DNA of 64,000 nt. Origin: an uncultured Syntrophaceae bacterium. GTDB taxonomy: Bacteria > Desulfobacterota > Syntrophia > Syntrophales > PHBD01. Shown piece after piece: positions 17,169 to 63,696 of the stretch. The notes under the pieces were generated by a model. The model did no database searches. It was not told where the DNA came from and saw only the letters and a program-made list of their open reading frames with translations. Position 1 is the stretch's first letter. Every line of letters starts with the position of its first letter. Location of the stretch: assembly GCA_964558665.1 (NCBI GenBank), contig CAZLFA010000005.1, forward strand, positions 7,603 through 71,602, given 5' to 3'. The position numbers were made by a program, and so were the translations under genes.

Positions 17169-17186
17169 TATACGGAGGATTTGTAC

Positions 17187-18357: not shown

Positions 18358-18477
18358 ATATCATGACACGTATCAGTAAAGGAAAAGTACCGAAGCGCGG
18401 CAGCCATCAAAAGGCCAATACACAATACAGTTTGTATAACAAGCGTTATACGGCCGCACAGGTGCCTGCCGAATCGA

Positions 18478-19854: not shown

Positions 19855-19995
19855 GGTAAATTCCTCCAGGCTGACAAGAATTGACGACAGAGTAAATACT
19901 TCAAGAGGATACGCCGGCCCTCAACCTCTGTCGCGGCTCCATAGCATAAAATGAAGGCAATTTGAAATCATTCTTTGCGATAAACTAATTAAAAC

Positions 19996-33597: not shown

Positions 33598-34677
33598 ATG
33601 TTCGACATCAAAAGTCTTTTTAGCAAAAGAAAATCAATAGTTGGACTCGATATTGGGTCAAGTTCCATAAAACTTTTGGAAATAGCCGATACACCAAAAG
33701 GATATCAACTTAGCCATTTCTCGATGCTTCCTCTCCCCAGAGGAGTAATTGCTGATGGAGTTATTCATGATCCAAAGGCTCTTACAGATCACATCAAAGA
33801 ATTATTCAAAAAAACAAGTTTTGCCCGCAAGGGAATTGCGACATCATTGTCAGGACATTCAGTAATAGTCAAAAAAGTTAATTTCAATCTGATGGAAGAC
33901 AATGAATTGCGGGAACTTCTCAAGGACGAAGCAGGCAAATATCTGCCCTTCGATAATATGAATGATGTAAGTTTTGATTTTCACATCCTTGGGCCCACAG
34001 ATTATAATCCTAACCAGATGAATGTAATGCTAGTTGCCGCTAAGAAAGATGTCGTGAACAGTTATGTGGATTCACTATCAGACGCGGGTATGACCGCCAC
34101 CATCATGGATGTCGATTCATTTGCCCTTGAAACGATGTTTGAAGAAAACTACAGCTTCGATGAAAACGAGGTAACCATTCTCGTCAACATTGGAGCAAGT
34201 ATAACCAATATCAATGTTGTTCAGGGTGGGTCTTCCATTTTTACCAGAGATTTTACTCTGGGAGGAAATGCCATAACCGAAGCCATACAGGAAAAAATGG
34301 GCATATCATTTGAAGAAGCAGAAGACATAAAATTAGGAACTGCTGAAGTTGATGAATCCGTGCTCAAGGAAATTCACGACAGCCTCCTGATTTTTGCCGA
34401 ACCCCTCTGTTCAGAAATTGAAAGGTCCATTGAATATTTCACATCAACCTATGGTTCTGAATCGGTCAAGAGGGTTATTCTTTCAGGCGGGGGGGCAAAT
34501 ATTCCTGGGATAGCTGCAGACTTATCACACAGATTGAATATTGAAGCAGAAATCGTAAAACCCTTTCAGAAAATTGAAATTGGAAAGAATGTCATTGATG
34601 CTAAAGACATTTCCAATATCGCTCCCATTGCAGCGGTAGGAGTGGGTTTAGCATTAAGGAGGGTTGGGGACCGATGA
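33598..34677 (+). CDS. pilM: type IV pilus assembly protein PilM
   Basis: Actin-like ATPase fold, VGLDIGSSSIKLLE. Followed by pilNOPQ. Confidence 0.9.
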   Translation: MFDIKSLFSKRKSIVGLDIGSSSIKLLEIADTPKGYQLSHFSMLPLPRGVIADGVIHDPKALTDHIKELFKKTSFARKGIATSLSGHSVIVKKVNFNLMEDNELRELLKDEAGKYLPFDNMNDVSFDFHILGPTDYNPNQMNVMLVAAKKDVVNSYVDSLSDAGMTATIMDVDSFALETMFEENYSFDENEVTILVNIGASITNINVVQGGSSIFTRDFTLGGNAITEAIQEKMGISFEEAEDIKLGTAEVDESVLKEIHDSLLIFAEPLCSEIERSIEYFTSTYGSESVKRVILSGGGANIPGIAADLSHRLNIEAEIVKPFQKIEIGKNVIDAKDISNIAPIAAVGVGLALRRVGDR

Positions 34678-35222
34678 TAAAAATCAACCTTCTTCCTTAT
34701 GTTGAAGCAAAGAAAAAAGAAACAGCGGTAAGCCAAATTATTATCATTGCAGCATCATTAGCACTGTTTGCAGTTATTATTGCCGCTGTCTTCCTTTACA
34801 TGATGCTCAGCATTATGGGACTTGAAAAAGATCTAAAAGATAGTGAAGCCAAACTGGCGGCATTGACCAAGGTTGTCGGGGAAGTTGAAAATATAAAGGC
34901 AGAGAAACAAATTGTTGAAAAGAAATTGGCAATTATTAGAGGACTTGAGGAAAATAAACTTTATCCAATAAAAATGCTTGATCAGTTCTCAACTCTGGTA
35001 CCGGCAAAGGAGATTTGGCTGGAAAAAGTGTCGGAAGTCGGCACAGACATGAACATAGATGGCATTGGAAGAGACGGTATTGCCGTTGCCAAGTTTATGA
35101 AAACACTGGAAACCGCAAACTTCATTAATTCAGTTGAGCTTATCGCTTCAAGACAGAAAGAGATTGCCGGGGTTAAACTACAGCAATTCTCATTAAAATG
35201 CGCTACCAAGAGGAAGAAATAG
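34674..35222 (+). CDS. pilN: type IV pilus assembly protein PilN
   Basis: MIKINLLPY start, single TM helix, coiled coil. 4-nt overlap with pilM. Confidence 0.8.
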   Translation: MIKINLLPYVEAKKKETAVSQIIIIAASLALFAVIIAAVFLYMMLSIMGLEKDLKDSEAKLAALTKVVGEVENIKAEKQIVEKKLAIIRGLEENKLYPIKMLDQFSTLVPAKEIWLEKVSEVGTDMNIDGIGRDGIAVAKFMKTLETANFINSVELIASRQKEIAGVKLQQFSLKCATKRKK

Positions 35223-35225
35223 ACC

Positions 35226-35945
35226 ATGGCAATTGATATGGAAAGCATTAAAAATATGAATCCCAAGATGAAAGCCCTGCTTGTGGGGCTATTGATGATT
35301 CTCGGGGCTTATTTGTTCTGGTTTCTATATTTGGATTCGGCACTTGCAACAAAAGCTGATCTGACAAAAAAACTGGATGAAGTGCAAAAAGATATAAGCG
35401 CTAAACAGCTAATTGCCAATCAAAAGCAGAAATACCTTAGCGAAATTAAAGACCTGAGGGAGCTCTTTAATATCGCCCTGACAAAGCTTCCTGAGCAAAA
35501 GGAAATTCCAGGCCTTTTCCTGTCGGTTTCTGAAGCGGGGAAAGAAGCCGGCGTTGAATTTGTTCTTTTTGAGCCCCAGGCACCACCGAAGCAGCCTCCA
35601 CCAAAACCGGATGTCAAAGCCAATTTAAAGCCGTCCGATCAGAGGGCTGACCAACCGGCCAAAGACCAGAAACCTGATGCAGCAAAGGCAGCAGCGCCAA
35701 AGAAACCAGCAGAACCTGAAAGGTTTTACGAAGAAATACCGGTTCGCGTATCTGTAAATGGAGGCTTTCATAACACGGCAATTTTCTTTGACAAAGTTGC
35801 AAAACTATCCAGGATCGTTAATATAGAAGATATAAGCATGGGCGAGGGCAAAGATACGAAGGGGCGGGGACGTGTTGTTAATACTTCCTGCGTTATCAAA
35901 ACATACATGTTTTTGGAAAAGAAGGATGCAAAAACACAAAAATAG
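35226..35945 (+). CDS. pilO: type IV pilus assembly protein PilO (with Pro/Lys-rich insert)
   Basis: TM helix, coiled coil, C-terminal FYEEIPVRVSVNGGFHNTAIFFDKVAKLSRIVNI block. Operon position. Confidence 0.75.
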   Translation: MAIDMESIKNMNPKMKALLVGLLMILGAYLFWFLYLDSALATKADLTKKLDEVQKDISAKQLIANQKQKYLSEIKDLRELFNIALTKLPEQKEIPGLFLSVSEAGKEAGVEFVLFEPQAPPKQPPPKPDVKANLKPSDQRADQPAKDQKPDAAKAAAPKKPAEPERFYEEIPVRVSVNGGFHNTAIFFDKVAKLSRIVNIEDISMGEGKDTKGRGRVVNTSCVIKTYMFLEKKDAKTQK

Positions 35946-36651
35946 CCTGAAAGTAAAAAGTATATTTGTATTGACGGTATCTGTCATGACGGTAATGCTT
36001 TTTACCGTTGCAGAAGCAAGAGTATCAGTTAAATCATTCAAGTCGTCTTCACCGTCAAAATCCGTTGCACCGGCCCCAGCCCCTGCAGCACCGGCAAAGG
36101 CGGCGTCAGATAAATCTACCCTGTCAACTGCGGCAGGAGCAGCCGTTGGCGCAACGGCAGGAAGGGCTGTAGGCTCGGCAGTGGCAGGCACCCCATCAAA
36201 ACCAGCCACAACTACGCCGGCAGCAGCGCCAATAACAGATATAGCAGCAACCAAGACTGCTTTGCTTAACCCGGAAACATTTACATACACCCCTCTAGGG
36301 AAATCGGATCCCTTTAAACCGTTTATCGAAACGGATATTAAGGCTGCGTCTGCTGAAGGACGTGTGAGATCTATTCCTCTATCACCCTTGCAGAGACTGG
36401 ATGTAGAACAATTTACTCTTGTCGGAGTCGCCGGAAGTCCTAATCGCCGTGTCGCTATGGTAGAAGATAAAATGAACAAGAAATTTTACCCCGTAACAGT
36501 AGGGACGTCAATCGGTAAAAATAGTGGAAAAGTTGTAGATATTCTTGCTGATCGCGTAATAGTGGACGAAAAAGGAACTGTCTTCGAGGGTTCAAAAATA
36601 AAACCAAAGAGAATTATCATGAGGCTTTCAAGAGACGAGGTAAAACCATGA
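35926..36651 (+). CDS. pilP: type IV pilus assembly protein PilP (Ala/Pro-rich linker)
   Basis: Signal/anchor MQKHKNSLKVKSIFVLTVSVMTVMLF. C-terminal beta domain (DPFKPF...LVGVAG...VAMVED...Y.V..G). Start at the in-frame ATG at 35926. Confidence 0.65.
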   Translation: MQKHKNSLKVKSIFVLTVSVMTVMLFTVAEARVSVKSFKSSSPSKSVAPAPAPAAPAKAASDKSTLSTAAGAAVGATAGRAVGSAVAGTPSKPATTTPAAAPITDIAATKTALLNPETFTYTPLGKSDPFKPFIETDIKAASAEGRVRSIPLSPLQRLDVEQFTLVGVAGSPNRRVAMVEDKMNKKFYPVTVGTSIGKNSGKVVDILADRVIVDEKGTVFEGSKIKPKRIIMRLSRDEVKP

Positions 36652-38369
36652 AAAAACCCGCATCAATAATATTGTCGGTCATTGTATCTTGCGCAGTTTT
36701 TTGTTTTTTACTGGTGCCTTCCGCATCTATTGCACAGGAGAACAAAAGTGCCGGTGTCCGATCTGACAATGTCGGTATTTTGGAGAATATAGTTTTTCAA
36801 AAACTAAAGGGCAAAGAACGGATTGTTATTACACTCACCAAGAAGTCCCCTTTTAAAACTGAAGATAAGGCGGGAAGGACCATCACAATCAACCTTGAAA
36901 ATGCATTTGTACCGGAAGATTTGAGAAGGTCACAGGGTGAGGGGCAGCTTGACAATATTACACAGGCAGTACCCGATCAAAAGACAATTAATGGCAAACA
37001 ATGGATTTCTGTATCCATTGATCTTAAAGAACGTGTACCCTACAGCGTCAGGCGGGATGGGAAAAAGATAATTCTCGATTTTAATATTGCCTCTCTCGCG
37101 GGAAGAACACCTGCTTCACAGAGATCAGAAGCATTTGCAGATTCTTCGCCGGTAATGATCAAAAAAACCGAAAGAGACATTGCCGCAGGGCAACCGGGGA
37201 AATATTCCGGTCACAAGATAACAATTGATTTTCAGGATGCTAACATAAAGTCAGTACTTCGTCTGCTGGCGGAAGTGAGCGGCAAGAATATCGTCTCTGG
37301 AGAAGATGTGAAAGGCAACGTGTCTATAACCATGAAAAACGTTCCTTGGGATCAGGCACTGGATACGGTACTGGCTTTAAACGGTCTTGCAAAGCTGGAA
37401 AGCGGCAATGTCATATCTGTCATGACCTCCGAAAGACTCAGGAAAGAGACGGAAGAAAGGCGCAAAGCTGAGGAAGCCATCATAGCGGAGGAGAAGAAAC
37501 GCAAAGAGGAAGAGGTAAAGCTTCTCTCAGAACAGGGAAAATTAAGGCAGATTGCGATAGAAGCAAAGATTGTGGAAGCCTCGGATGAATTTGTACGCAA
37601 CCTCGGAGTTCGATGGGGTGGTAATACTCAGCAAAAAATGCATACCGGTGATTATTCATACGGGCTTTCCGGCGGGACAAACGTTTCTCAAACCAACCAG
37701 ATGATGTATAATTATCCTAGCGGCATCGGTTATACGAACGCAACAACGGGTCTACCGCTTACAATGGCGCCTGTTAACCTCCCCTCTGCATTGGCAGCAC
37801 CAACTTTCGGACTGGTTATCGGAGGTGCCAATGCTGTTCTGGAGGCGCAGATTCAGGCCCTTGAGACAACCAGCCAGGGTAAAATTATTTCTTCTCCAAA
37901 AGTAACCACAATGGACAATGTCAAAGCCGTTATTGAACAGGGACAGGATATACCATATGTTACCCCGGCAAGCGCTTCATCTCCGGCAACAGTCAACTTC
38001 AAAAAGGCGACACTTAAACTTGAAGTAAAACCTACCATCACATCTGAAGGCAAAGTTTCTATGGAAATTGCGGCAACCAACGACAGTGCAGACTACACAA
38101 AGGCTGCACAGCTTCAGGGAAATCCACCCATTAATACAAATCGCATTGAATCAAAGGTTGTCCTTAATGACGGCGATACCCTGGTCATTGGTGGTGTGCT
38201 AAAGACGGAAGATACAAAGGGTGTAACCGGAGTCCCCTGGCTCTCCAAAATTCCCATCCTGGGCTGGCTTTTCAAGGAAGAAGATGTCACCAAGAAGAGA
38301 AGGCAGCTGCTGATATTTGTGACACCGAAGATTTTGAAGACGGGAGACAAAATAGCGGAAAGAAGATAA
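36648..38369 (+). CDS. pilQ: type IV pilus secretin PilQ
   Basis: AMIN-like N-terminus, N0 block (ITIDFQDANIKSVLRLLAEVSGKNIV), secretin C-domain (VPWLSKIPILGWLFK). Confidence 0.9.
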   Translation: MKKPASIILSVIVSCAVFCFLLVPSASIAQENKSAGVRSDNVGILENIVFQKLKGKERIVITLTKKSPFKTEDKAGRTITINLENAFVPEDLRRSQGEGQLDNITQAVPDQKTINGKQWISVSIDLKERVPYSVRRDGKKIILDFNIASLAGRTPASQRSEAFADSSPVMIKKTERDIAAGQPGKYSGHKITIDFQDANIKSVLRLLAEVSGKNIVSGEDVKGNVSITMKNVPWDQALDTVLALNGLAKLESGNVISVMTSERLRKETEERRKAEEAIIAEEKKRKEEEVKLLSEQGKLRQIAIEAKIVEASDEFVRNLGVRWGGNTQQKMHTGDYSYGLSGGTNVSQTNQMMYNYPSGIGYTNATTGLPLTMAPVNLPSALAAPTFGLVIGGANAVLEAQIQALETTSQGKIISSPKVTTMDNVKAVIEQGQDIPYVTPASASSPATVNFKKATLKLEVKPTITSEGKVSMEIAATNDSADYTKAAQLQGNPPINTNRIESKVVLNDGDTLVIGGVLKTEDTKGVTGVPWLSKIPILGWLFKEEDVTKKRRQLLIFVTPKILKTGDKIAERR

Positions 38370-38391: not shown

Positions 38392-38429
38392 AACTGCCTG
38401 CTTTATTCATTTTTAGCAGGCAGTTTTTT
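38392..38429 (+). terminator. rho-independent terminator after pilQ (convergent junction)
   Basis: AACUGCCUGCU / AGCAGGCAGUU 11-bp stem followed by UUUUUU. The T-tract overlaps the stop codon of the convergent minus-strand gene. Confidence 0.7.
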
Positions 38430-39276
38430 ATTTGCTTCCGAGCTGATACTCAAAGACCTTAACAACCTTGTTGCCATCCGTATCGGTAACAGATGCTCCG
38501 AATTTGTATGCACCAGGTTTTTCAGCCATCCAGATTATCTTACCGGAATCCTTATTGATGGTCATACCTTCCAGAAGGGGTTTCTCAAGGGCATATATCA
38601 GCTTTTCTCCTTCCGACCCTTGACCCGTTAATTGTATTTCAAAAGGAGCTCCCCGTTTAAGGCTGCTCGACAACACCTTCATTTCCAGAGTAGGTGGAAG
38701 TGTATGAATGACAACCGCACTCGTGAACGGCTCAGATCTGACTCCATCAATGACAGGAACCACAGTGATACCGACCTCGTCTTTCTTTTTCAGGGTGTAT
38801 GACCGCAACTCGTTTCCTCTGGCATTCTCTATAACATTTCCGTTTATTTTCCATTCGTACTCGAAGGAGACTTCTGCCGTACCATTATAGTCATAGATCA
38901 CTTCCGCCTTAATCGGTTCCGTTGCCGTAGGCTGATCAGGAATGAACCTTACAGCTTTTATATTAACCTTGTTGCTTATTGGCAGTCGAGACTGGTCTAT
39001 GGGCTTGTCCTCACTGCCCATGATGAATTTTACCGGTGTTTGGACACCATCTTTTTGAACAGCTGCTTCCTGGACGTTCTTTTTATCCGGTACGGCAAAG
39101 AAATAAACTGCCGTTCCCACTAAAATCACGGCAGCCGATGCAATAGCAATTTGATTTACATATTTTGGTTTTTGCTTTACGGCTAGTTCAGGTTTTCCTG
39201 GTTTTCCCGGTGCCCCCGGTTTTCCCACTTTTCCTGGTACTTTCTTTTTTTTCGCTGTTGTCTTTTCAGTTTCCAA
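38428..39276 (-). CDS. membrane-anchored protein with GKPG repeats and two Ig-like extracytoplasmic domains (hypothetical; last gene of minor-pilin operon)
   Basis: N-terminus KKKKVPGKVGKPGAPGKPGKP, TM helix IAIASAAVILVGTAVYFF, then beta-rich repeats (FEYEWKINGN...; YALEKPLLEGMTINKDSGKIIWMAEKPGAYKF). 21 nt downstream of pilY1. No prepilin motif. Confidence 0.5.
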   Translation of the reverse strand: METEKTTAKKKKVPGKVGKPGAPGKPGKPELAVKQKPKYVNQIAIASAAVILVGTAVYFFAVPDKKNVQEAAVQKDGVQTPVKFIMGSEDKPIDQSRLPISNKVNIKAVRFIPDQPTATEPIKAEVIYDYNGTAEVSFEYEWKINGNVIENARGNELRSYTLKKKDEVGITVVPVIDGVRSEPFTSAVVIHTLPPTLEMKVLSSSLKRGAPFEIQLTGQGSEGEKLIYALEKPLLEGMTINKDSGKIIWMAEKPGAYKFGASVTDTDGNKVVKVFEYQLGSK

Positions 39277-39297
39277 TTTATAAACCTGTCGACTTTT

Positions 39298-42200
39298 TTA
39301 TTCCAGTCTCTTGTCTTTCCAGTAAAGTATATTTGTCCGGTTCGAAACGCCCGGCGGATTGAAGTTGATGCGTGTCGTATTTGCTGAAGTTCCGCTGCCG
39401 CCGCTTACTGTCACGTAAAGATCAGACATTGATGACCCGCCCGGTCTCATTGATATGATCGGGGCTGACGATATGCCTGATCCCACCGACATCGACCTGC
39501 TTCCGCTCGAGAAAACCGGCCCGCCCGTTACCATGTTTATCGCGTAAAGATACGAAGCTCCTCCCTGGTCGCACGGATTGTTTCCACTTGCGGGAACATA
39601 AGATGTGAAATAGGCGACACCGCCAAAAACAGTAGGATCAGCCAGAATCTTTTCGCCGCTTCCCGACAGGTTTATGTAATAACCGACTTTTGTTGTTGAA
39701 GATGTATCATATGTCGATCCGGCGGAAGTAATGTTATCGAGATCGTTTATGCTGTATGTCGTCGTGCGGTTGTTGTCCTTCACGGCAAAGAATTTCTCCT
39801 GCGCGTTGGATGCCGTAGGATCTACCTTGTCGCCCGTACCCCATTGAACCCACATATTGCCGCTCGAATCCTTTGCCACCACGGGAATTGTATAGATCGG
39901 CCTGATTGTGCCCGTCGATGCTCCAAAGAGTTTGCTTCCGGTCCAGTTTCCGGTATTGCAGGTGGCAGAGGCATCAAGCATCGCCTTGGTGCACATCTTG
40001 AAACGCCACATGGTGCCGCCGAGATCTCCGATATACACGGTATCTACGAAACTGTCGTTGTCTGTATCCACAATGGCCGCTGTTCCCGGAAGGCTGTAGT
40101 CCATGTCGGCGTTATCGGCATGGGTGTAGCTCCAGAGGATATTTCCGTTGCTGATATCTACAACGTAGAAACCCTTGCCCCGCGTATCGCAGGTGCCGCC
40201 TCCGGAACAGTCGGCGGCGTTGTATCCGGCCCCGACAAAGGCGGCCCATTTCTCTTCTTCGGAACCGCTGGTTTTGATCAGAACTCTGCCTGTCATGAAC
40301 TTGTTCCAGGGCTCCCCTATATACGGCGCCAACGTGGAACCAGGATTGATGCGCCAGGGAGATTTCGACGCCGTCGGGTAATCCGTTTTGCTTGATACAT
40401 TAGTAATAGGATCAGTAATGTCAAATATCCAGTATCCGCAGTAGTAAGGATACGATGTGGAATATGTAGCGGAAAATCCTTCGTCACAGTACTGGGAAGA
40501 GCTCCATGTCCACGAGGAAGCGCCGCGGCCCTCGCCGAATGCAAGAATTGTATGCCAATCGGTGCTTGTTTTCGATGTCCCGCTGCTTCCGGCCGACCAC
40601 CACACATCCGCCACGGTCACAGGGCCATCGACAAAATAGGCATGTGTCTGGGTGGTAGGATGGACGTTGTGGGCTATGTTTTTCAGCTTCAGCATCAGGT
40701 TCGGCGGGACAAAGCTCCAGGCCTCCGAGCCGTCGGTGGTTTTAAAGGCATGGAACTGCCCGTCATTCGCACCTGCCACGATCAGGCGATTTCCCTGTTC
40801 GGTGGTTGTGGCACAACTTGCAGCCCGGCAATGATCGCAGCGGTGCTTGGCAAAGGCGTTGATTGAGGTGGTAGTGCCGCAGCTATATGTTTTATTCGTG
40901 TCCCGCGCATCGTCATAGAACGCCGAAGGCGTCCCGACGGTTATCGGCGTGGCGCGGAAGATGTCCCCCAGTTTCCAGTTTTCCAGATTATAAGTACTGT
41001 CTCCGCGTATGAAGCCGACGATCATGGTCGCCTGCGAACTCGTGCAGTTATAACTGCAGTTCGTCTGTGATACCGTGCAAAAACCGCTGTTGCAGTTGGT
41101 GCCGGTACAGTTGGTCGTATCTGCCGTACAGGCGGAACTGTTTCCGTAAAGTATGCTTGTATATAAATCTTCAGTCGCAATATTGGAGGTTGTAAACTTT
41201 TTCAATTCCGCGGTGCCCGTTAAAAGACCGGTTCCGGAATCGCGACTCCTCTTGTAAGTCAGGATGTTCCGGCAGCCGGAACCTGCTGACGTCAGCGTGG
41301 TGGTGCACTCCGAAGAGACCGCAGACTGCAGGACACTGCCGGCGTCCCATATAACGGATCCCACCGAGCCGTCGGAGTTGATCTGGTACTTTTTCAGGTG
41401 GCCGAGCCAGAAAGACTCATTTTCGACGGGCTGGAAGGAGCCTTCGTAGAGGTAGTTTTCATCCTGGGTACGCGATGACTGCACGGAGGCCTGTGAAAAT
41501 GAATAAGTCGCTTCCCTGATGATATCGATGGCGGAACGCATCGCCTGTGAAAGCTGAGTGGCGTTTCCGGCCAGAAAGGCATAACCGGCAAGAGAGGCGG
41601 TACCGGGTTCGTTGGTTGTCGCACAATCATATGATGTTGAACCTGAACCCGTACAGGCGGCGGAGGTATCAGACATGCAGGAAGTAACGCCTGTCGGAAA
41701 CAGGTTGGCGGCACCGGAAGCGATAGAGTAACCGGTGGTAGAGCCGGTGTTGACCAGAAGCGGATTGTCGGTCCCGCCGTAGTAGGCCATCCAGTTGAGA
41801 GTGTTTTCAAAGATGTCGGGCATTCCTGAACCGAAACCGACGATAAATGTCTGATAGCCGGCCTCCTTCAATGCCTTCGCTTGTGCTACAGATTCCCGAC
41901 GCCTTTTGTAGGAACCGGACGTGTATTCAGCGCCGTTGCCCCCGCAGGCGTAGGTATCCGAGCCGTCGGTCATCATGATGACAAATTTTTTCCGGCAGCT
42001 TCCCGCATTGTCCGCCGCCTTGTTGGCGTCGAGATAGAGTTTTGCCTCATTGAGCGCCGCCGCCAGGGGCGTGCCGCCGCTGGCATATTCTCCGACTGCG
42101 CACTCTGTGGCCGTGGAGCATTTGTCGCCGCCGGATGTAACGCAAGAGGTTGTAGTCGTTGAACAGCTTGTTTTGTTGTTGCAGAAGATGCAACTGTACT

Positions 42201-42630
42201 TTACGCCCAGCTCTTTTCCGCTCACCAGGCGAATGCTGCCTGTTGAATAGTCGCCGTCGTCATTGCCGCCGGCATCCCGGTAACGCATAAAACCGATGCG
42301 GATCCCCAGGGTACTCTCATCCTGGGCATCGATCGTGCCGTCGCCGTTGTCGTCGAGGACATTGGCTATCGCGCGCTTGGCGATGGCAAGCCTGCTGCAG
42401 TCAACGGTATGGCCTGAACCGGAACTGCTGTAAAACGGGCCGGCACAGGTTGAATCCCCGTATATATTGCTTCCCCCGGCGGGATTCCATGACATACTGC
42501 CGGAGAGATCGAGGACAATGAGGGCGTCGGGGGCCACGGAGGTGAAGATGGCGGTCTCGTCGGCCTGTGCTCCGCCGACGGCAAGAACAACCATCAATGC
42601 ACAAATAATTTTCAGCAAATGCTTCTTCAT
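39298..42630 (-). CDS. pilY1: PilY1-like type IV pilus tip-associated protein with N-terminal vWA domain, unusually Cys-rich
   Basis: Signal peptide, vWA MIDAS DLSGSM (42493-42510) and MMTDGSD, C-terminal propeller-like region with a DTDNDSFVD loop (40042-40068). Follows pilX with a 10-nt gap. Confidence 0.85.
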   Translation of the reverse strand: MKKHLLKIICALMVVLAVGGAQADETAIFTSVAPDALIVLDLSGSMSWNPAGGSNIYGDSTCAGPFYSSSGSGHTVDCSRLAIAKRAIANVLDDNGDGTIDAQDESTLGIRIGFMRYRDAGGNDDGDYSTGSIRLVSGKELGVKYSCIFCNNKTSCSTTTTSCVTSGGDKCSTATECAVGEYASGGTPLAAALNEAKLYLDANKAADNAGSCRKKFVIMMTDGSDTYACGGNGAEYTSGSYKRRRESVAQAKALKEAGYQTFIVGFGSGMPDIFENTLNWMAYYGGTDNPLLVNTGSTTGYSIASGAANLFPTGVTSCMSDTSAACTGSGSTSYDCATTNEPGTASLAGYAFLAGNATQLSQAMRSAIDIIREATYSFSQASVQSSRTQDENYLYEGSFQPVENESFWLGHLKKYQINSDGSVGSVIWDAGSVLQSAVSSECTTTLTSAGSGCRNILTYKRSRDSGTGLLTGTAELKKFTTSNIATEDLYTSILYGNSSACTADTTNCTGTNCNSGFCTVSQTNCSYNCTSSQATMIVGFIRGDSTYNLENWKLGDIFRATPITVGTPSAFYDDARDTNKTYSCGTTTSINAFAKHRCDHCRAASCATTTEQGNRLIVAGANDGQFHAFKTTDGSEAWSFVPPNLMLKLKNIAHNVHPTTQTHAYFVDGPVTVADVWWSAGSSGTSKTSTDWHTILAFGEGRGASSWTWSSSQYCDEGFSATYSTSYPYYCGYWIFDITDPITNVSSKTDYPTASKSPWRINPGSTLAPYIGEPWNKFMTGRVLIKTSGSEEEKWAAFVGAGYNAADCSGGGTCDTRGKGFYVVDISNGNILWSYTHADNADMDYSLPGTAAIVDTDNDSFVDTVYIGDLGGTMWRFKMCTKAMLDASATCNTGNWTGSKLFGASTGTIRPIYTIPVVAKDSSGNMWVQWGTGDKVDPTASNAQEKFFAVKDNNRTTTYSINDLDNITSAGSTYDTSSTTKVGYYINLSGSGEKILADPTVFGGVAYFTSYVPASGNNPCDQGGASYLYAINMVTGGPVFSSGSRSMSVGSGISSAPIISMRPGGSSMSDLYVTVSGGSGTSANTTRINFNPPGVSNRTNILYWKDKRLE

Positions 42631-42640
42631 TTAACCCTCC

Positions 42641-43156
42641 TCATCTCGACATCGTCGAAATTTCAATTGGCCCGTAGCCGACTCCGACCCCGATAGCCGC
42701 AGTTGTATTGTACTTGGTATTCCGGCCTGTAACAGTTACATTGTAGCGCCTCTGCCCCCACGTCTGACCTCCTCCGATGGAATACCCGACCATGGGAATA
42801 AATACCGGCCCCGTAGTCGGTACGGTAGGCGTACCTATTGTGTACAGCGACGTCGGATCGACGGCGATGTCATCCGCAACCGTGGTTCCGGCACTGGCGG
42901 CAAGATTCTGCGGGTCAAAGGTCATGGTAAGGCGGTTAATGCCCTTCTCTGCAGCGGCAAGCGCCTTCTTGTCTCCCATGACCTGTACACTTGTCCTGAC
43001 ATCCTGAGTTGACAAGGCAACGACGAGCATCGCCAGGGCCATCAGGATCATAGAGGCGATTATCGCCAGAACCAGGGCAAATCCCTGCTGAGATCCCAGC
43101 CTGGGAAGGTTACCGATCATAATAGCCGTGATATCCTTTTTATTGTGCTGGTGCAT
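42641..43156 (-). CDS. pilX: PilX-like minor pilin
   Basis: QQGFALVLAIIASMILMALAMLVV hydrophobic N-terminus without Glu5, as is usual for PilX. Operon position. Confidence 0.6.
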   Translation of the reverse strand: MHQHNKKDITAIMIGNLPRLGSQQGFALVLAIIASMILMALAMLVVALSTQDVRTSVQVMGDKKALAAAEKGINRLTMTFDPQNLAASAGTTVADDIAVDPTSLYTIGTPTVPTTGPVFIPMVGYSIGGGQTWGQRRYNVTVTGRNTKYNTTAAIGVGVGYGPIEISTMSR

Positions 43157-43859
43157 GGTTCCTCACAATCACACTTGATGAATAGATTATCCTTGACGGC
43201 TGATTGGTTGTCGGATTCGCGTATTCCGTTTCCACGGCAAGAATTATGTCAATCCTCCTGATATCCGGCATGGTGGCGGCGGTAAGGGTTGACCCGGGTA
43301 GCAGCTCCGTCCCGGATCCGTTGAAGTAGCGAAAAACAGGCAGGCCCAGGGTGGTGTTTATCACCCTGACAGTTTTCTGATTGCCAACGCTGCCGCCCAA
43401 TAGAGGCTGGCCGCCGGGACTGCAACTGCCGGGCGGAGGTCTTTTGGATTCTCTGGTAATCTGCTGGTTAGCCGTATCGTAATTAAAGCGGATGATTTCG
43501 TTTTCCACATCACCGATTGATGAACTCTCGTTTATATCCATTTGAACAGTAATGGAGTTGGCGGTCGCTTCCTGAATTCCTTTATAAGTGGGAGTTGCAG
43601 AGGTACTGAAACAGTTCGCGGTGCTCAGCCACAATTCGGAGTCCATCACAAAATTGGGGTTGAACGATGCCATGCGGATTTCCATTTCCATCAACCCCAG
43701 GGCTGCCTTTTCGTCCTGTTGTGCCATTACTCTTCTTTCAATACCGCTTGATGAGCGTTGGGCTATATTCACAACGCCGTAAATCGCCACCAGCAGCAAC
43801 ATGCCGATCGTCATCGCCACTACAATCTCAACCAGGGTAAAACCTTTATGATTTTTCAT
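43140..43859 (-). CDS. pilW: PilW-like minor pilin
   Basis: Prepilin motif KGFTLVEIVVAMTIGMLLL. The ATG at 43859 forms an ATGA overlap with the pilV stop. The long upstream extension in the ORF track was rejected. Confidence 0.7.
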   Translation of the reverse strand: MKNHKGFTLVEIVVAMTIGMLLLVAIYGVVNIAQRSSSGIERRVMAQQDEKAALGLMEMEIRMASFNPNFVMDSELWLSTANCFSTSATPTYKGIQEATANSITVQMDINESSSIGDVENEIIRFNYDTANQQITRESKRPPPGSCSPGGQPLLGGSVGNQKTVRVINTTLGLPVFRYFNGSGTELLPGSTLTAATMPDIRRIDIILAVETEYANPTTNQPSRIIYSSSVIVRNHAPAQ

Positions 43860-44293
43860 ACGCATCCAAACCTGAAACGTTCCTGCCTTGTAACAACAAG
43901 GCTTTCCGTTACTCCTGTATTGTTTATCGGGGGCCAGGTAACCGTGACAGTCACCCGCCATGCGTTTGTAGCAATATTCGTTATTGTCGTTTGTACCTGA
44001 TATACGGCATCTCCCTGAACCGAGCCTGTCGTACCGCTTATCTTTACAGACTCTGTCGGTAAAGTGCCCGTGGTTACTGCAAAGCAGGGGTTCATGATCA
44101 GCGATTCCCGCAACTCCAGCTGGCTTTGCAGTATGCCTGCCGCCCGGCCAAGATAGTCTGATCTGGCTGTCATCTTCCATGCTGATGGCTGCAGGGCAAG
44201 CAGCGCCAGGATGCCGGTTACGGTTATCATTATTGCTATCAGCACTTCTATTAAGCCGAATCCTCGTTTATTATTGCATATTGAAAGTGACAT
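43856..44293 (-). CDS. pilV: PilV-like minor pilin
   Basis: KRGFGLIEVLIAIMITVTGILAL prepilin cleavage/methylation motif. Confidence 0.7.
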   Translation of the reverse strand: MSLSICNNKRGFGLIEVLIAIMITVTGILALLALQPSAWKMTARSDYLGRAAGILQSQLELRESLIMNPCFAVTTGTLPTESVKISGTTGSVQGDAVYQVQTTITNIATNAWRVTVTVTWPPINNTGVTESLVVTRQERFRFGCV

Positions 44294-44747
44294 AGGCCTT
44301 TCCTGTCGTACTTACAGTGATGACTGCTGTTGACCCCCTGCTGTTTCTTAAAGTAACCGTACCGTTTGGATCGCTTGTTCCCCGTACTCTGAAGAAAATT
44401 TGCTTTGTGCCTGAAAAATTGGCTGCTGATATCGCAATATCGGCGTCAAATGTTCTCGGTGTCTTGGTTTGATAAGTATTAAATACCGTCGGCGTAGCCG
44501 TCTCTGCATAAGATATAACATAGTTGTTATTGCTGGAATCATCAAAAGTAATTTTGTAGATTCTGCTCTCGCTTCTCGCCTTTTCTTTTGCATTTGCCAT
44601 GTCTGCTTGGACATCCCTGGCTGCTGATCGCAAATTGGCATTTGAAGAGTATCTGTTCCAGGTAAATGTGGTAAAAGTTGCCAAAATGCCCATAATGAAC
44701 ATTACGATCAGTACTTCCACCATTGAAAAGCCGCGTCTGTTTTTCAT
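44271..44747 (-). CDS. fimT: FimT/FimU (GspH-like) minor pilin
   Basis: MKNRRGFSMVEVLIVMFIMGILA prepilin motif. About 158 aa. First pilin of the operon. Confidence 0.7.
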   Translation of the reverse strand: MKNRRGFSMVEVLIVMFIMGILATFTTFTWNRYSSNANLRSAARDVQADMANAKEKARSESRIYKITFDDSSNNNYVISYAETATPTVFNTYQTKTPRTFDADIAISAANFSGTKQIFFRVRGTSDPNGTVTLRNSRGSTAVITVSTTGKAYVTFNMQ

Positions 44748-45601
44748 TACATCTTTCCGTCTATGGTCTGTATAAGTTCATCCTCGGGCAACGCCCCTTC
44801 GCGAACCCGCCCATCCGGCATGATTATGGTCGGAGTTGCTCCGAAACCGAGAGATTGCGCCAATTTTTTTGAATTATCGATCTCCTCGGTGTTGCATTCC
44901 ACTTTTTTTATCTCTTTTCTATCGAAATTATCTTCAAGCATTTTCATTGATTTACTGCACACGACACTCTTTGCCTTCCAATATGCGTCCTTATGAAAAT
45001 CGAGTGGAAAAAATTTTATATAGAAGGAGATGTCTTTTCGTTTCAAAGCAATCTGCTTAATCGTCTTATGAAGCTGGCCGCAGAAACCGCAATCCGGGTC
45101 CGTAAACAAAATTACCTTTTTTGAAGCTGCAGTTTCACCTACCACCAATGCCTCATTCAAAGGAATCGCTGATATATCGACTTTTTTATTATCCTTTATC
45201 TTCCGTATCGTCTCTGCCGTAAAATTTACCATGGGATCAAGTCCGATCAGCGAACCCATCATCACATATTTCTTGTTCACATCGACATATAGAATATATG
45301 GCTTCCGCCTGCTTTCAATTACAATCTCGCAAAATCCCTTTGCCGCACTGTCCGACCAACTGACAATTTTTACATCCGATGCATCAAGCTTTTTCAATAC
45401 ACCCCTGATATCCTCCTCGGTGAAAGTTGTACAAGTTGTCTGCGAAGATTTCTGCTGTATAACCTTTGAAGATTTCTTGCCCCTGTCACTCTTGGATTCC
45501 TTTCCCCAGGCTGCAGTTCCCGTCTGAACAATAAACAATAATAAGACGAAACAAAAAACCAGACCTTGATTCTTCGGCTGTTCAAATCGATTCATTATCA
45601 A
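44747..45601 (-). CDS. DsbC/DsbG-like periplasmic thiol:disulfide isomerase
   Basis: FTDPDCGFCGQLH (compare E. coli DsbC FTDITCGYCHKLH), thioredoxin fold with an N-terminal domain, signal peptide. TTG at 45601 lies 9 nt after AGGAGG (45611-45616); the ATG at 45595 is an alternative. The stop overlaps the fimT ATG by 1 nt. Confidence 0.75.
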   Translation of the reverse strand: MIMNRFEQPKNQGLVFCFVLLLFIVQTGTAAWGKESKSDRGKKSSKVIQQKSSQTTCTTFTEEDIRGVLKKLDASDVKIVSWSDSAAKGFCEIVIESRRKPYILYVDVNKKYVMMGSLIGLDPMVNFTAETIRKIKDNKKVDISAIPLNEALVVGETAASKKVILFTDPDCGFCGQLHKTIKQIALKRKDISFYIKFFPLDFHKDAYWKAKSVVCSKSMKMLEDNFDRKEIKKVECNTEEIDNSKKLAQSLGFGATPTIIMPDGRVREGALPEDELIQTIDGKM

Positions 45602-45789
45602 GCGGCAGCACCTCCTGAAGTTTATCAACCATTTATTATTCTTTAAAAAAATGTTTAATAATTATACCTTGAGTTAAAAGTTTTAACAATATATTTACTT
45701 TGCTCGGTTTTAGGAATTTGTTTTTGGCAGGGGCTTTGGAACACCTCTTCCGGGGCTAAACACCTATCCCAGAGGAGGTGCTATGCTCA

Positions 45790-45880
45790 CCCGGCAACCC
45801 TGCTGCCATATCCAATTCACTTAAGACTTAGGCCAGAAGCTCTGCGTCCCACCCTTTCGGATGGTTTGCCTTTATCAGGA
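45790..45880 (-). promoter_or_regulatory. c-di-GMP-I (GEMM-I) riboswitch aptamer
   Basis: Minus-strand AAAGGCAAACCAUCCGAAAGGGUGGGACGCAGAGCUUCUGGCCUAAGUC..GGAUAUGGCAGCAGGGUUGCC. It matches the remembered Vc2 core GGGCAAACCAUUCGAAAGAGUGGGACGCAAAGCCUCCGGCCUAAAC almost base for base. GAAA tetraloop hairpin plus both halves of the 11-nt tetraloop receptor (CCUAAG/UAUGG). Confidence 0.8.
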
Positions 45881-45933
45881 AAAGCAATCAACAATGAGAA
45901 ATTGACACTTGTTTACTATTAATGGGGTGATAA

Positions 45934-45962
45934 ACAGTAACACCAATAGATTATGTTGTCAA
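45934..45962 (-). promoter_or_regulatory. sigma70-like promoter candidate for the riboswitch-led operon
   Basis: Minus strand: TTGACA (45957-45962), 17-nt spacer, TACTGT (45934-45939), about 50 nt upstream of the aptamer. Confidence 0.3.
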
Positions 45963-46089
45963 TAAAAAATATTACCCACGCCGAATTCTCTCTTGACACG
46001 TTACAGGTGCTGTGTTAGCGTTCAAACCAATTCTAATAATATTGAAATATCGCAATAATATCAATGCACAACAGCATGCGGTTGCCTTG

Positions 46090-46776
46090 ATGATCACGGA
46101 AACTGATTCCCTAAAAAAAAGAATAGCTGATTGTATCGAAAGAAAAAAATTGGCCGATGCCAAGAATCTCTTAATGCAGCAATTGAATGAACACCCCATG
46201 GATATTGAAGCAAAAATGCTTCTTGGAAGGGTATTGATTGAGGCAGGGGAAGTGCGAGCGGCATTTGAAGTTTTTCGAGAAATCGAATCCGCTTTTATTG
46301 ACTTAAGCATGTTTTTTGTGCATCTTGGCGACATATACAGAAACCGGGGCATGAACAGGGAAGCCACGGACTGTTATCATAAATTTCTGGATTTAAACCC
46401 CGGATCGGCAATTTCCAAGGAACTCTCAGTTACCATAGATTCTTTAATCGGTAATCATGAATCATACAGCGGGGACAAAGATTCCTCAAAAGAAATGGCA
46501 GGAATTGCACCTGAATTCTATACAATCACATTAGCTGATCTTTATGTAAGGCAGGGACATATAGACATGGCCTGCGAAGTTCTTGAGAAAATGCTTATAA
46601 AAAACCCTGCCAACGAAGATGCAGCGAAATTGCTGAGAGAACTTAAGCCAGTTACTTGTAGCGAATCGGATTCAGGTGTTTTAAAAAACAAAAAAATGGA
46701 AATTGTTATTAACAAGCTCACCCAGTGGCTTAATAAGTGCATTGATCGCAAGGCAGATCAACCAATGGTGCATTGA
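46090..46776 (+). CDS. TPR repeat protein (cytoplasmic)
   Basis: Several TPR-like helical pairs (LLGRVLIEAGEVRAAFEVF..., LGDIYRNRGMNREATDCYHKFLDLNP, LADLYVRQGHIDMACEVLEKMLIKNP). The start is uncertain. 4-nt overlap with pepP. Confidence 0.55.
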   Translation: MITETDSLKKRIADCIERKKLADAKNLLMQQLNEHPMDIEAKMLLGRVLIEAGEVRAAFEVFREIESAFIDLSMFFVHLGDIYRNRGMNREATDCYHKFLDLNPGSAISKELSVTIDSLIGNHESYSGDKDSSKEMAGIAPEFYTITLADLYVRQGHIDMACEVLEKMLIKNPANEDAAKLLRELKPVTCSESDSGVLKNKKMEIVINKLTQWLNKCIDRKADQPMVH

Positions 46777-58738: not shown

Positions 58739-59566
58739 TCACTTTTTGATGAATGCCGCAGATGCATATCCCACCACACGCGACCTGTCTCCTGTTACAT
58801 CACCGGAATTTGCATATTTCAAAATCTTAGCTTCACTCGCCCCCATCATTTTCGAAGTCATGACAGTAACCGCGGCAGGACCTCCGCCACAGGCTTCACA
58901 TTTACCACTTTTTAAATCTGCGAGCATCCCCCGTACATCCATTTTCCCCAAATTCCCCAAAAATTGAGAATCCTTTTTTACTGCCTGATTATAATCATGA
59001 AAATGAGAAAGATCGGAACTGCCGACAATGAGAATATTGCTATCACCGGCGGACTGGAATATGGCATTTGCCAGTTCTTCACAGGTTTTTGAATCCTGAT
59101 TACCCATAACCAGGGGAACAAACGAGAATTCTCCCAATGCCACCTGAAGGAAGGGAAGTTGAATCTCGAGGGCATGTTCCTGGATGTGAGCAGAAGGAAT
59201 GTCATCAATCATTCGGCTGAAATTCATCAGCCTGCCTGCCATGGCTCTGTTTACCGGCACAACTCCCAGGGGAGTTTCATATCCGCCGCCGAGGTAAACA
59301 GAAACACCGGGAAACGCCATACGATGGGACGGGCTTATAACAAACACCGTATCGTATAGTTTTTTTCTTATTGTGTGGTATGCATATGCGGCAACCTGAC
59401 CTGAATATACATAACCTGCATGAGGGGCGACAAGACCGACAATATGACCCTCTATCTTGTCAACGGCAACATTGCTGAAATAGTCTTCGATATCCTTTTT
59501 CAGGATACTTGAGTCTCCAGGATACCATGAGCCGGCAATTACAGATTTTCTTATGTCATTAATCAT
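58739..59566 (-). CDS. AmmeMemoRadiSam system protein B (Memo1 family)
   Basis: AGSWYPG, VAPHAGYVYSG, SSDLSH blocks. The ATG at 59566 forms an ATGA overlap with the stop of the upstream fusion gene (track start 59581 is also possible). Confidence 0.85.
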   Translation of the reverse strand: MINDIRKSVIAGSWYPGDSSILKKDIEDYFSNVAVDKIEGHIVGLVAPHAGYVYSGQVAAYAYHTIRKKLYDTVFVISPSHRMAFPGVSVYLGGGYETPLGVVPVNRAMAGRLMNFSRMIDDIPSAHIQEHALEIQLPFLQVALGEFSFVPLVMGNQDSKTCEELANAIFQSAGDSNILIVGSSDLSHFHDYNQAVKKDSQFLGNLGKMDVRGMLADLKSGKCEACGGGPAAVTVMTSKMMGASEAKILKYANSGDVTGDRSRVVGYASAAFIKK

Positions 59567-62487: not shown

Positions 62488-63696
62488 TTATCCGACAACG
62501 GATGCCATTTTGAATATCGGCAGGTACATCGCTATAATCATCCCGCCGACAACGCCACCCAGAAAAACCATCATAAAAGGTTCCAGCAGAGCCGTCATAG
62601 CATCAACAGCCGTATCAACCTCATCGTCATAAAAATCTGCAATCTTGGCAAGCATTGCATCAAGGGCACCCGTAGCTTCTCCGACGGCAATCATCTGTAC
62701 AACCATACTGGGAAATATGCCTGTTTCTGTAAGAGGCTCGGCAATCGTCTTCCCTTCACTGATGCTTTGCCTGACCTTTATTAATGCATTTTCAATTATC
62801 ACGTTTCCGGCGGTTTTACTAACGATGGTTAAGCCTTCAAGAATAGGTACCCCACTCGACATCATCGTGGCCATGGTTCTTGTAAATTTTGCCACAGCTA
62901 CCTTTTTTAAAAGAGGACCAAAAACCGGTGATTTTAGAACCAGATTATCGATCATATACGTACCTTTTTCGGTTTTCTTGAAAGCCTTGAAGGCACTGAA
63001 AAGACCTATGACTATCCCAAGCATTATCCACCAGTAGCTCTGCATAAACGCGCTCGCATTAACGAGAAACTGCGTAGGCCCGGGCAACTCCCCCCCCATT
63101 CCTTCGAACATTTTTTGGAACACGGGAATAACCTTCAGCAACAGCAATGCAACAACACCTATTGAAATGACGAGAACCGAAGCCGGATATGTCATGGCCC
63201 CTTTGACCTTGCTTTTCAATTTGGCTGCTTTTTCCATGTAAGCAGATAAACGGTTTAATATAACATCCAATATACCGCCACTTTCGCCGGCGGCAACAAG
63301 GTTCACAAAGAGCTGATCAAAGATATCCGGATATTTCTTCAAGGCATCGCTGAGCGTTGAGCCACCTTCAATATCATCTTTAATAGTCTGAATAATCTTT
63401 TTAAACGTCTTATTATCCTGCTGATCGCCTAAAATTTCCAGACACTGAATAAGAGGCAGCCCCGCATTAATCATAGTCGCAAATATTCTACAAAAAACGA
63501 CAACATCCTTTTCCTTGACCTTCTCTTTCAGAAAAGGGAAGTATTCCATAAGATCTTTGGGTTTTTCCTTAACCGTGATGGATTTGAATCCCTGCTTACG
63601 AAGTATGTTTCGAACTGCAGCCTGATCAACGGCCTCAAGTTCTCCTTTTTTTTCCTGACCTTTTCTTGTGGTTGCTTCCCATAGAAATACCGGCAT
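62488..63696 (-). CDS. pilC: type IV pilus assembly platform protein PilC (GspF family)
   Basis: Two GspF repeats, three TM regions, 402 aa. Confidence 0.9.
   Translation of the reverse strand: MPVFLWEATTRKGQEKKGELEAVDQAAVRNILRKQGFKSITVKEKPKDLMEYFPFLKEKVKEKDVVVFCRIFATMINAGLPLIQCLEILGDQQDNKTFKKIIQTIKDDIEGGSTLSDALKKYPDIFDQLFVNLVAAGESGGILDVILNRLSAYMEKAAKLKSKVKGAMTYPASVLVISIGVVALLLLKVIPVFQKMFEGMGGELPGPTQFLVNASAFMQSYWWIMLGIVIGLFSAFKAFKKTEKGTYMIDNLVLKSPVFGPLLKKVAVAKFTRTMATMMSSGVPILEGLTIVSKTAGNVIIENALIKVRQSISEGKTIAEPLTETGIFPSMVVQMIAVGEATGALDAMLAKIADFYDDEVDTAVDAMTALLEPFMMVFLGGVVGGMIIAMYLPIFKMASVVG

Follow-up and report, generated by a model that had tools for sequence, protein, structure and literature searches.

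What could tie the initiation of a type IV pilus to a second messenger is the question raised by a stretch of DNA from an uncultured Syntrophaceae bacterium (assembly GCA_964558665.1, contig CAZLFA010000005.1, positions 7,603 to 71,602; 64,000 nt in all, referred to below as the window). Whether a type IV pilus starts, where it does so and what it sticks to are decided by minor pilins and PilY1, and to our knowledge the known regulators of these proteins are themselves proteins. In the window, an operon on the minus strand, running from a dsbC-like gene through fimT, pilV, pilW, pilX and pilY1 to a gene for an Ig-like protein, is preceded by a candidate riboswitch for cyclic di-GMP (c-di-GMP). 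It had been proposed earlier, from the letters of the sequence (the original prediction), that c-di-GMP gates production of the whole module at the RNA level. The proposal can be divided into three parts: whether the element is what it appears to be, whether it belongs to the operon, and in which direction it would act. The reading that we consider probable is that of a functional c-di-GMP-I riboswitch in the leader of this pilus-tip operon, leaning towards OFF and accompanied by a probable proximal promoter that would bypass it.

Related loci and their analysis

Homologues of the dsbC-like protein numbered 148 at E <= 1e-10. The loci examined were drawn from the surroundings of dsbC homologues, 80 in genomes and 80 in metagenomes, together with the contigs of two closer relatives; the related loci gathered in this way are labelled with L-numbers (L005, L171 and so on). 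The proteins of the window and a covariance model, for which eight aptamers and an Rfam-derived structure were used, served as queries for scanning the loci. Presence of an aptamer was scored only where at least 330 nt upstream of dsbC were available, and lineages were defined as clusters at 95% nucleotide identity. The same species was found in metagenome contigs only (runs SRR12489245-47 and ERR14964770). Relatives of the dsbC-like protein were annotated as metagenome-assembled genomes (MAGs) of Syntrophales, Syntrophaceae or Smithella, and farther ones as Nitrospirota.

Identity, fold and ligand pocket of the aptamer

The candidate element ends 188 nt before the TTG start codon of the dsbC-like gene and was the sole match to a cis-regulatory RNA in the window when Rfam was searched; against the purpose-built covariance model it scored 102.4 bits. 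A second-messenger RNA switch of the GEMM-I type ahead of the operon had been predicted, and Rfam agreed at 66.3 bits and on the right strand. The leader that carries it is also, as had been stated, the only sizeable non-coding region upstream of the seven-gene unit.

The fold consists of P1, P1a capped by GAAA, and P1b. Over 20 homologues, 98.8% of the cells were paired and 10 of the 25 aptamer pairs were altered on both sides, these being statistics that rest on an alignment fitted to the model. None of 500 shuffles reached as high a value, and partners slid out of register paired in 33-46% of cases.

Pocket nucleotides are given here in Vc2 numbering, and the ligand-contact roles of G20, A47 and C92 are taken to be those of the crystal-structure literature. 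In the window these are positions 45870 (G20), 45843 (A47) and 45794 (C92), with G48 at 45842. Across the 20 homologous aptamers, G20 was found in 19 and A47 (alignment column 43) and C92 in all. Position 48 is A in 17 of the 20; G occurs there only in the window, L165 and L171, which form a sub-clade.

The top Rfam label for the window aptamer is RF03167, the c-di-GMP-I-GGC variant, whose gathering score of 59 is exceeded, and RF03167 is likewise the top match for the aptamer of L165 (64.9 bits). Orthologous aptamers in the relatives scored 67-81 bits against RF01051 (gathering score 35). The variant name is read by us, presumably correctly, as G, G and C at positions 20, 47 and 92. True membership of the GGC variant was rejected, as position 47, for whose G the variant is named, is A in 20 of 20 aptamers; in the cmscan alignment the model consensus GACGC-GA-AgCc faces GACGC-AG-AGCU in the window, with two mismatched positions. 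The aptamer of L171 has a pocket identical to that of the window and yet scores 74.8 bits against plain RF01051, so that the GGC label turns on the alignment of the distal stem-loop and not on the pocket.

These observations bear on the idea that the aptamer of the window sub-clade senses some other ligand, for example another cyclic dinucleotide, owing to the altered pocket neighbourhood GACGC-AG-AGC. That RF03167 is the top-scoring clan member for the window and L165 speaks for it, as does the maintenance of A48G in three lineages. We nevertheless regard it as very improbable, given canonical G20 and C92, an A where the variant is named for G47, the plain RF01051 match of L171, and orthologous aptamers that are canonical in 15 other lineages. 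Specificity for cGAMP (3',3'-cyclic GMP-AMP), as in GEMM-Ib, was rejected separately: G20 is present in the window and 19 of 20 homologues, and the cGAMP signature A20 is absent from the window. G20 is a selectivity position (PMC9262584). By its sequence, fold and pocket nucleotides, the element is thus assigned as a c-di-GMP-I (GEMM-I) riboswitch aptamer.

One metagenome aptamer (L086, 2627-2723) apparently has A20, a change of the cGAMP type, though this position is a gap in the alignment made with the covariance model. With broken P1b pairs and a low score (76 bits against our own model, 54.5 bits in Rfam), this aptamer may be decaying or mis-assembled.

Conservation of the aptamer with the operon

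The dsbC gene is directly followed by fimT in 37 loci, and then by pilV-pilW-pilX-pilY1 where the contig reaches. A strong aptamer (76-117 bits) was present in 21 of the 24 fimT-linked dsbC loci that could be scored and in none of 96 dsbC homologues without a following fimT (Fisher p = 1.4e-20, for loci that are not phylogenetically independent). The aptamer-positive loci make up 18 clusters besides the window. A lack of synteny in relatives had been named beforehand as a refutation of the original prediction; the arrangement was found instead to recur in these 18 further lineages. The distance from aptamer to start codon is 160-202 nt across every lineage. The order aptamer-dsbC-fimT-pilVWX-pilY1 is therefore conserved, and it is specific to pilin-linked dsbC genes.

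Of the seven genes said to stand behind the switch, those from dsbC to pilY1 are syntenic in relatives; the last gene is the exception. Among loci reaching past pilY1, which most do not, a relative of the Ig-like gene follows pilY1 only in L034, which has no aptamer; L005-L011 and L018, eight genome loci with synteny, gave none.

L034 belongs to a Nitrospiraceae MAG; there the fimT-pilV-pilW-pilX-pilY1-Ig-like set (10001-19903; 36-44% identity to the window proteins) is separated by 2.4 kb from a dsbC homologue upstream of it. In another Nitrospirota MAG (L081, 517-606, plus strand), a c-di-GMP-I aptamer of 56.5 bits against RF01051 directly precedes a gene for a 270-aa protein whose C-terminus resembles a PEP-CTERM sorting signal (VPIPAAAYLFGSGLLGMFGLRRK); a dsbC homologue is located 2.6 kb downstream.

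Three loci have the linked genes and no working aptamer. In L005 (9734-9834) and L093 (164-266) aptamer remnants of 24.9 and 30.2 bits were found, in which the 3' half (about 36 nt) is deleted and the GGGACG core is mutated. L085 (1-520) lacks the aptamer altogether. Despite the decay of its aptamer, L005 keeps every gene of the operon as far as pilY1, and the short contigs L093 and L085 keep the genes as far as their sequence reaches, to pilX in L093 and to fimT in L085.

The leader between aptamer and start codon

A C-rich segment, here called box 1, was found 40-61 nt past the aptamer in most leaders. Its sequence is (A)CCGUCUGAACCCUGCC in most lineages, with GCCCCUGCC as the version of the window, and it is predicted to pair with the 3' strand of the aptamer, GGCAGCAGGG in the window and GGCAGGGUUGCCGGACG across leaders. 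In most lineages box 1 is the best partner of that strand within the leader, at -19 to -27.5 kcal/mol; the corresponding value in the window is -18.8 kcal/mol. The unconstrained minimum free energy (MFE) fold included the box 1 helix in all four leaders inspected (the window, L006, L008 and L010), and in most leaders the MFE fold was about 10-15 kcal/mol more stable than the fold in which the aptamer was enforced (range 2.6-24). In the L008, L009 and L010 groups the pairing was better than in shuffled leaders (0-6 of 100 as good). The position of the CCCUGCC core of box 1 is kept across groups, and the core is mutated (CGCUGGC or CACUGGC) in exactly two loci, L005 and L093, both with a decayed aptamer, as would be expected if box 1 exists to pair with the aptamer. 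The motif is invariant among the window, L165 and L171, and for the window the case for box 1 comes from this conservation of the motif rather than from energy.

The TTG start with a good Shine-Dalgarno (SD) sequence was found in 23 of 24 related leaders, the exception being L018 with ATG; in L171, too, the start is ATG. Conservation of so weak a start codon may mean that it has a part in the regulation. An upstream in-frame ATG in some relatives, tried as an alternative start or leader peptide, was discarded, being not conserved across groups.

The window leader also contains a 13-bp hairpin between aptamer and gene, with the 5' arm CACCUCCUCUGGG and the SD-like 3' arm CCCGGAAGAGGUG, which forms in the MFE fold. 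Among the window, L165 and L171 its arms are invariant and its loop is variable. The 5' arm holds a 9-nt perfect complement of the dsbC SD region, which together with the preceding G reads GCACCUCCU, and in the aptamer-enforced MFE fold of the window this anti-SD sequence pairs with the real SD. The hairpin is not followed by a U-tract and is thus not an intrinsic terminator. A CCAUUC/GAAUGG hairpin before a U-rich run was seen in one subgroup of relatives only, and there the U-rich run belongs to the bipartite element of fixed spacing described in the next section. An intrinsic terminator as expression platform was rejected for want of any terminator-like site between aptamer and gene, and in the window itself no clear expression platform was recognised.

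When the aptamer was enforced, which mimics ligand, accessibility of the SD and start region was lower in 15 of 21 leaders, equal in four and higher in two. In 16 of 18 leaders the SD and start region was the best partner that the remaining leader offered to the released box 1, and in the L006 group the SD region, GGCAGGGAGG, mimics the aptamer strand. Folding thus leans, weakly, towards an OFF switch of the Vc2-tfoY type.

The same riboswitch and operon could instead form an ON switch, in which the freed 5' half of the ligand-free aptamer, or the anti-aptamer fold, would block translation or elongation until c-di-GMP relieves the block; more of the tip complex would then be made at high c-di-GMP. 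Both characterised pilus-associated examples, Geobacter pilM (PMC9262584) and Clostridioides difficile (PMC11477304), are ON switches; yet no ligand-free terminator was found here, the anti-aptamer helix of the window being without a following U-tract. By inspection, the 5' strand of P1b is complementary to the SD region over about 5-6 bp each in the window (AGCUUCUG) and in the L008 group (GCCAC), and blocking the 5' half of the aptamer lowered rather than raised SD accessibility in the window and L006. The enforced folds point the other way in all but the few leaders just counted as equal or higher, and in an ON design the inhibitory element normally lies in the ligand-free helix, whereas here that helix excludes the SD. 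On this evidence we hold an ON switch to be rather unlikely.

Promoter-like elements

Between aptamer and start codon lies a bipartite element, box 2. Its form is TTGATT-N14-TG-N-hexamer in 23 of 26 related leaders, where the spacing is constant, the sequence of the spacer varies, and the element ends 33-57 nt before the start codon; the window and L165 share the form TTGTTA-17-TATAAT. L005, L093 and L085, the three loci in which no aptamer works, all have it intact. With its fixed spacing, free spacer and independence of the aptamer, box 2 looks less like an RNA structure than like a DNA element made of a -35 and an extended -10, and it may be a second promoter or an operator. Against a promoter, the -10 hexamers of the relatives (GATAAA and similar) are without the final T, the relatives' elements do not meet simple sigma70 scan criteria, and L171 has neither form. 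The retention of box 2 where the aptamer is lost suggests that part of the expression probably bypasses the switch. The claim that c-di-GMP gates the whole module is accordingly upheld as to the conserved link of riboswitch and operon and weakened as to the completeness of the gating.

A stronger version of the bypass can be formulated, in which the operon is expressed essentially from the proximal element at 45689..45661, and the aptamer transcripts are mostly short RNAs that depend on c-di-GMP in their stability or abundance, like the P1-Vc2 small RNA, the switch contributing little or acting in trans. The strict tie of the aptamer to this operon and its absence from unlinked dsbC genes argue for a role in cis and so against this version; the defects of box 2 as a promoter count against it too, and in addition no terminator follows the aptamer. 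The conservation of box 2 and the intact, aptamer-less operon of L005 are in its favour, and there is a precedent in Vibrio cholerae, where most Vc2-containing transcripts are without tfoY (10.1101/617340). We consider it improbable.

Upstream of the aptamer, the window has a candidate distal promoter, TTGACA-17-TACTGT, and a second consensus match farther out (Table 1). In 15 loci, an element of the sigma54 type with -24/-12 boxes (TGGCATATTGATTGCA and similar) precedes the aptamer by 68-150 nt; among these loci are L007 (about 9520-9600), L008, L009, L010, L006, L089 and L098. In nine loci a sigma28/FliA-type element, TAAAG-N13-17-CCGATA, lies upstream of the aptamer, at 62-73 nt in eight and at about 200 nt in L096. 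Neither type was found upstream of the window aptamer (45880-46100). This pattern suggests that the riboswitch stands behind alternative-sigma promoters in most relatives and behind the sigma70-like TTGACA-17-TACTGT in the window sub-clade.

A sigma54 promoter before the window aptamer was considered and rejected, the sole nearby match being inside the aptamer and at chance level. This match, in the 3' strand of the aptamer (45793-45808, minus strand, TGGCAGCAGGGTTGCC), fits the -24/-12 pattern with two mismatches; 62 such two-mismatch matches were found in the window against 65 expected, and it is probably a coincidence. A conserved block, TTGAACGCTAACACAGCACCTGTAACGTGTCAAGA, was observed in the divergent intergenic region of the window (45991-46025, minus strand), in L165 and in the aptamer-less L085 (95-130), and is possibly a promoter of the extracytoplasmic function (ECF) type or an operator.

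Proposed mechanism

According to the OFF-leaning reading, the distal promoter would start transcripts that carry the aptamer in their 5' leader and run into the seven-gene operon, the products of which would build or fold the priming and tip complex of a type IVa pilus. Without ligand, the conserved C-rich box (...CCCUGCC...) would capture the 3' strand of the aptamer. With c-di-GMP bound, the aptamer would close and box 1 would be freed; the freed box 1 would then lower expression from the distal promoter by pairing with the SD and start region, by giving Rho access to an unstructured C-rich stretch, or by both. The result would be an OFF switch built like Vc2-tfoY of V. cholerae. Transcripts independent of the riboswitch would be supplied by the proximal promoter-like element, so that c-di-GMP would tune the output of the operon instead of fully gating it. 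It is a prediction from the DNA that the window forms an anti-aptamer helix, that regulation has the sign and level given in this scheme, and that either promoter is active.

Several observations weigh against this reading. Position 48, beside the intercalating A47, is G and not A in the window sub-clade, and the best Rfam label is that of the GGC variant, for which no ligand is established. In a consensus scan no terminator-like site was found between 45789 and 45601, and RNAalifold, applied to nine leaders, gave no conserved structure beyond the aptamer stem; with neither an intrinsic terminator nor a consensus fold, occlusion of the ribosome-binding site, Rho-dependent termination and an effect on RNA stability remain as candidate modes. 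The energy of the anti-aptamer pairing in the window was matched by 24 of 100 shuffles, and the pairing was likewise not exceptional against shuffled leaders in L006, L007, L095 and L018. The shifts in SD accessibility were small (mean about 0.07). Pairing of box 1 with the SD was no better than with random coding windows or with a shuffled SD (median ranks 0.22 and 0.33), and box 1 was accordingly not retained as a statistically supported anti-SD. Finally, the operon persists in three lineages that have no working aptamer, so that the switch is dispensable for having it.

Genes and proteins of the operon

The coordinates of all features are collected in Table 1. The seven genes of the minus strand were recovered from the list of open reading frames, and every overlap and gap that the original prediction had given proved exact on direct inspection of the junctions: TAATG, with a 1-nt overlap that is a single A, between the dsbC-like gene and fimT; overlaps of 23 nt between fimT and pilV, of ATGA between pilV and pilW and of 17 nt between pilW and pilX; and gaps of 10 nt between pilX and pilY1 and 21 nt between pilY1 and the Ig-like gene. 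From the shared orientation and from overlaps and gaps too short for promoters or terminators, we infer that the seven genes form one transcription unit. Within the operon, promoter-like consensus matches (8, against 10.2±3.0 in shuffled sequence) and terminator-like ones (8, against 9.0±3.1) are not in excess. Where the operon and pilQ converge, an inverted repeat lies between their ends; it is followed by a T-run on the plus strand and is a likely terminator, clearly for pilQ and possibly shared or bidirectional; it was missed by the consensus scan because its loop exceeds 8 nt. The pilMNOPQ genes converge with the operon and pilC is distant, and neither is behind the switch, as had been said.

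Table 1. Positions of the features discussed in the text, in window coordinates.
Feature	Position	Strand	Basis or remark
c-di-GMP-I (GEMM-I) riboswitch aptamer	45789..45879	-	Rfam 66.3 bits, E 1.9e-13
Hairpin, 13 bp, arms CACCUCCUCUGGG and CCCGGAAGAGGUG (SD-like)	45742..45780	-	sequence; in MFE fold
Box 1, candidate anti-aptamer strand, with GCCCCUGCC at 45734..45726	45724..45745	-	conserved motif, MFE
Promoter-like TTGTTA-17-TATAAT, candidate bypass promoter P2	45661..45689	-	10/12 consensus match
SD AGGAGG (45616..45611) and TTG start (45601..45599) of dsbC-like gene	45599..45616	-	sequence
Candidate distal promoter TTGACA-17-TACTGT, would transcribe the aptamer	45934..45962	-	read from sequence; kept in L165
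Second consensus match TTGATA-17-TATTAT	46064..46036	-	promoter scan
dsbC-like gene, first in operon	45601 (TTG)..44747	-	open reading frame list and direct junction check
fimT, FimT/GspH-like minor pilin	44747..44271	-	Pfam N_methyl and GspH
pilV, PilV-like minor pilin	44293..43856	-	Pfam N_methyl; position kept in relatives
pilW, PilW-like minor pilin	43859..43140	-	Pfam N_methyl; synteny kept in relatives
pilX, PilX-like protein	43156..42641	-	weak PilX_N; synteny kept in relatives
pilY1, PilY1-like tip protein	42630..39298	-	cysteine-rich N-terminal part, vWA/MIDAS-like motif, C-terminal beta-propeller
Ig-like gene, seventh and last, 282 aa, TTG start	39276..38428	-	single-pass membrane protein, Pfam He_PIG
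Inverted repeat, 10 bp, perfect, arms ACUGCCUGCU and AGCAGGCAGU, 12-nt loop	38393..38424		between operon end and convergent pilQ end
pilMNOPQ	33598..38369	+	convergent with operon
pilC/T2SSF gene	62488..63696		

Pfam matches to DsbC_N (28.1 bits) and Thioredoxin_2 (57.5 bits) were obtained with the first protein, and its translation has a CGFC active-site motif and a hydrophobic N-terminus or signal peptide. By its domains, CxxC motif and export signal it is a predicted periplasmic disulfide isomerase of the DsbC/DsbG type. The class III signal or N_methyl motif was found in three genes of the operon, with GspH in the first of these, fimT. The PilX_N match in pilX (20.6 bits) is below the cut-off of 25.5, and the naming of this gene therefore rests on position and conserved synteny.

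The description of the sixth protein as a vWA-PilY1 stood in its second half: the T4P_PilY1 beta-propeller was matched at E 3e-12. A VWA match in the N-terminus remained below threshold (E 0.016; 15.9 bits, cut-off 23.8), and motifs like those of a metal-ion-dependent adhesion site (MIDAS), namely DLSGSM, GGT and TDGSD, were spotted by eye. A sequence search of the PDB with PilY1 gave no match. Cysteine makes up 3.0% of the residues of PilY1 (33 in all); in 13 other window proteins the share is 0.7%. With a cysteine-rich PilY1 in the window and a dsbC-like first gene throughout the clade, the simplest reading is that the isomerase serves PilY1 as its dedicated folding catalyst, which we infer to be its most plausible role.

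Elsewhere in the window, an open reading frame of 770 aa (59563-61875, minus strand) joins a PALP domain (cysteine-synthase type, pyridoxal phosphate) to a complete cysteinyl-tRNA synthetase, and an HcyBio homocysteine-biosynthesis gene is located at 31842-33020.

Significance

A conserved c-di-GMP switch ahead of these genes would be a direct route at the RNA level from c-di-GMP back to pilus initiation, and would close a loop that has so far been drawn one way only, from PilY1 to c-di-GMP in Pseudomonas. To call this the opposite of the Pseudomonas wiring, as the original prediction did, is a way of framing that goes beyond what a sequence can show. The lineage consists of syntrophic, largely uncultured anaerobes, relatives of Syntrophales and Smithellaceae, in which pili have been associated with contact between cells and with the exchange of electrons. 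Lineages that have lost the aptamer and kept the operon offer a natural experiment with its own controls, and the locus offers a candidate dedicated folding catalyst for a PilY1 with 33 cysteines. The list of targets of this riboswitch class is extended; the understanding of how the class works is unchanged.

A wider and quite tentative proposal, which we would put forward only as speculation, is that c-di-GMP sets the number of pili initiated throughout the clade of Syntrophales-like bacteria. The minor pilins, PilY1 and their dedicated isomerase would be throttled at the RNA level, and the assembly machine, the motor and the major pilin would be left untouched. Layered on distal promoters of the sigma54 or sigma28 type and a constitutive proximal promoter, the switch would make a three-input gate, and in the A48G sub-clade its ligand affinity or specificity may have shifted.

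Comparison with known systems

A close operon in gene content is fimU-pilVWXY1E of Pseudomonas aeruginosa, which we take to share the same order logic (GspH/FimT-type, PilV, PilW, PilX, PilY1) and the same proposed role in priming and at the tip. The Pseudomonas minor-pilin operon is regulated by the proteins AlgR/FimS and Vfr, and PilY1 acts there upstream of c-di-GMP synthesis. That operon is not known to us to have a riboswitch, to begin with a dsbC-like gene or to end with an Ig-like one.

A close regulatory parallel is Vc2-tfoY of V. cholerae, which has an aptamer of the same class and, as in the window, a long leader without an obvious intrinsic terminator. In the OFF model for Vc2-tfoY, an anti-RBS strand (RBS, ribosome-binding site) alternates between the 3' side of the aptamer and the ribosome-binding site, and promoters within or after the aptamer yield riboswitch-independent transcripts (bioRxiv 10.1101/617340). 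The target there is a regulator of motility and the type VI secretion system, whereas here it is a set of pilus structural genes; the upstream promoter in the relatives of the window is sigma54- or sigma28-like; and the promoters and the anti-RBS role proposed here are read from sequence.

The GEMM-Ib riboswitch of Geobacter pilM shares with the window the fold, a deltaproteobacterial lineage and type IV pilus genes (PMC6456294, PMC9262584, PMC1950547). The Geobacter pilus-gene elements are cGAMP-sensing ON switches (PMC6456294, PMC9262584). The pilM riboswitch has A20, senses cGAMP and acts as a transcriptional ON switch with a terminator before pilMNOPQ, the assembly platform, whereas the window aptamer has G20 and no terminator. 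In the window, unlike Geobacter, pilMNOPQ adjoins the operon without an aptamer of its own, and the target is the minor-pilin and PilY1 set; no minor pilin, pilY1 or dsbC is listed in PMC1950547.

The type IV pilus operon CD3513-03 of C. difficile is under the direct, RNA-level control of a c-di-GMP riboswitch (PMC11477304). Unlike the window, that system has a class II aptamer, a Gram-positive pilus, an operon that opens with the major pilin (pilA1) and an established ON switch.

Full-text literature searches (c-di-GMP with riboswitch and PilY1; GEMM with minor pilin) returned no paper describing the present arrangement. With a target set that has not been described before (minor pilins, PilY1 and a DsbC-like isomerase), and in a lineage unstudied for it, the window thus presents a known riboswitch class in a known kind of job, the control of pilus genes by a cyclic dinucleotide.

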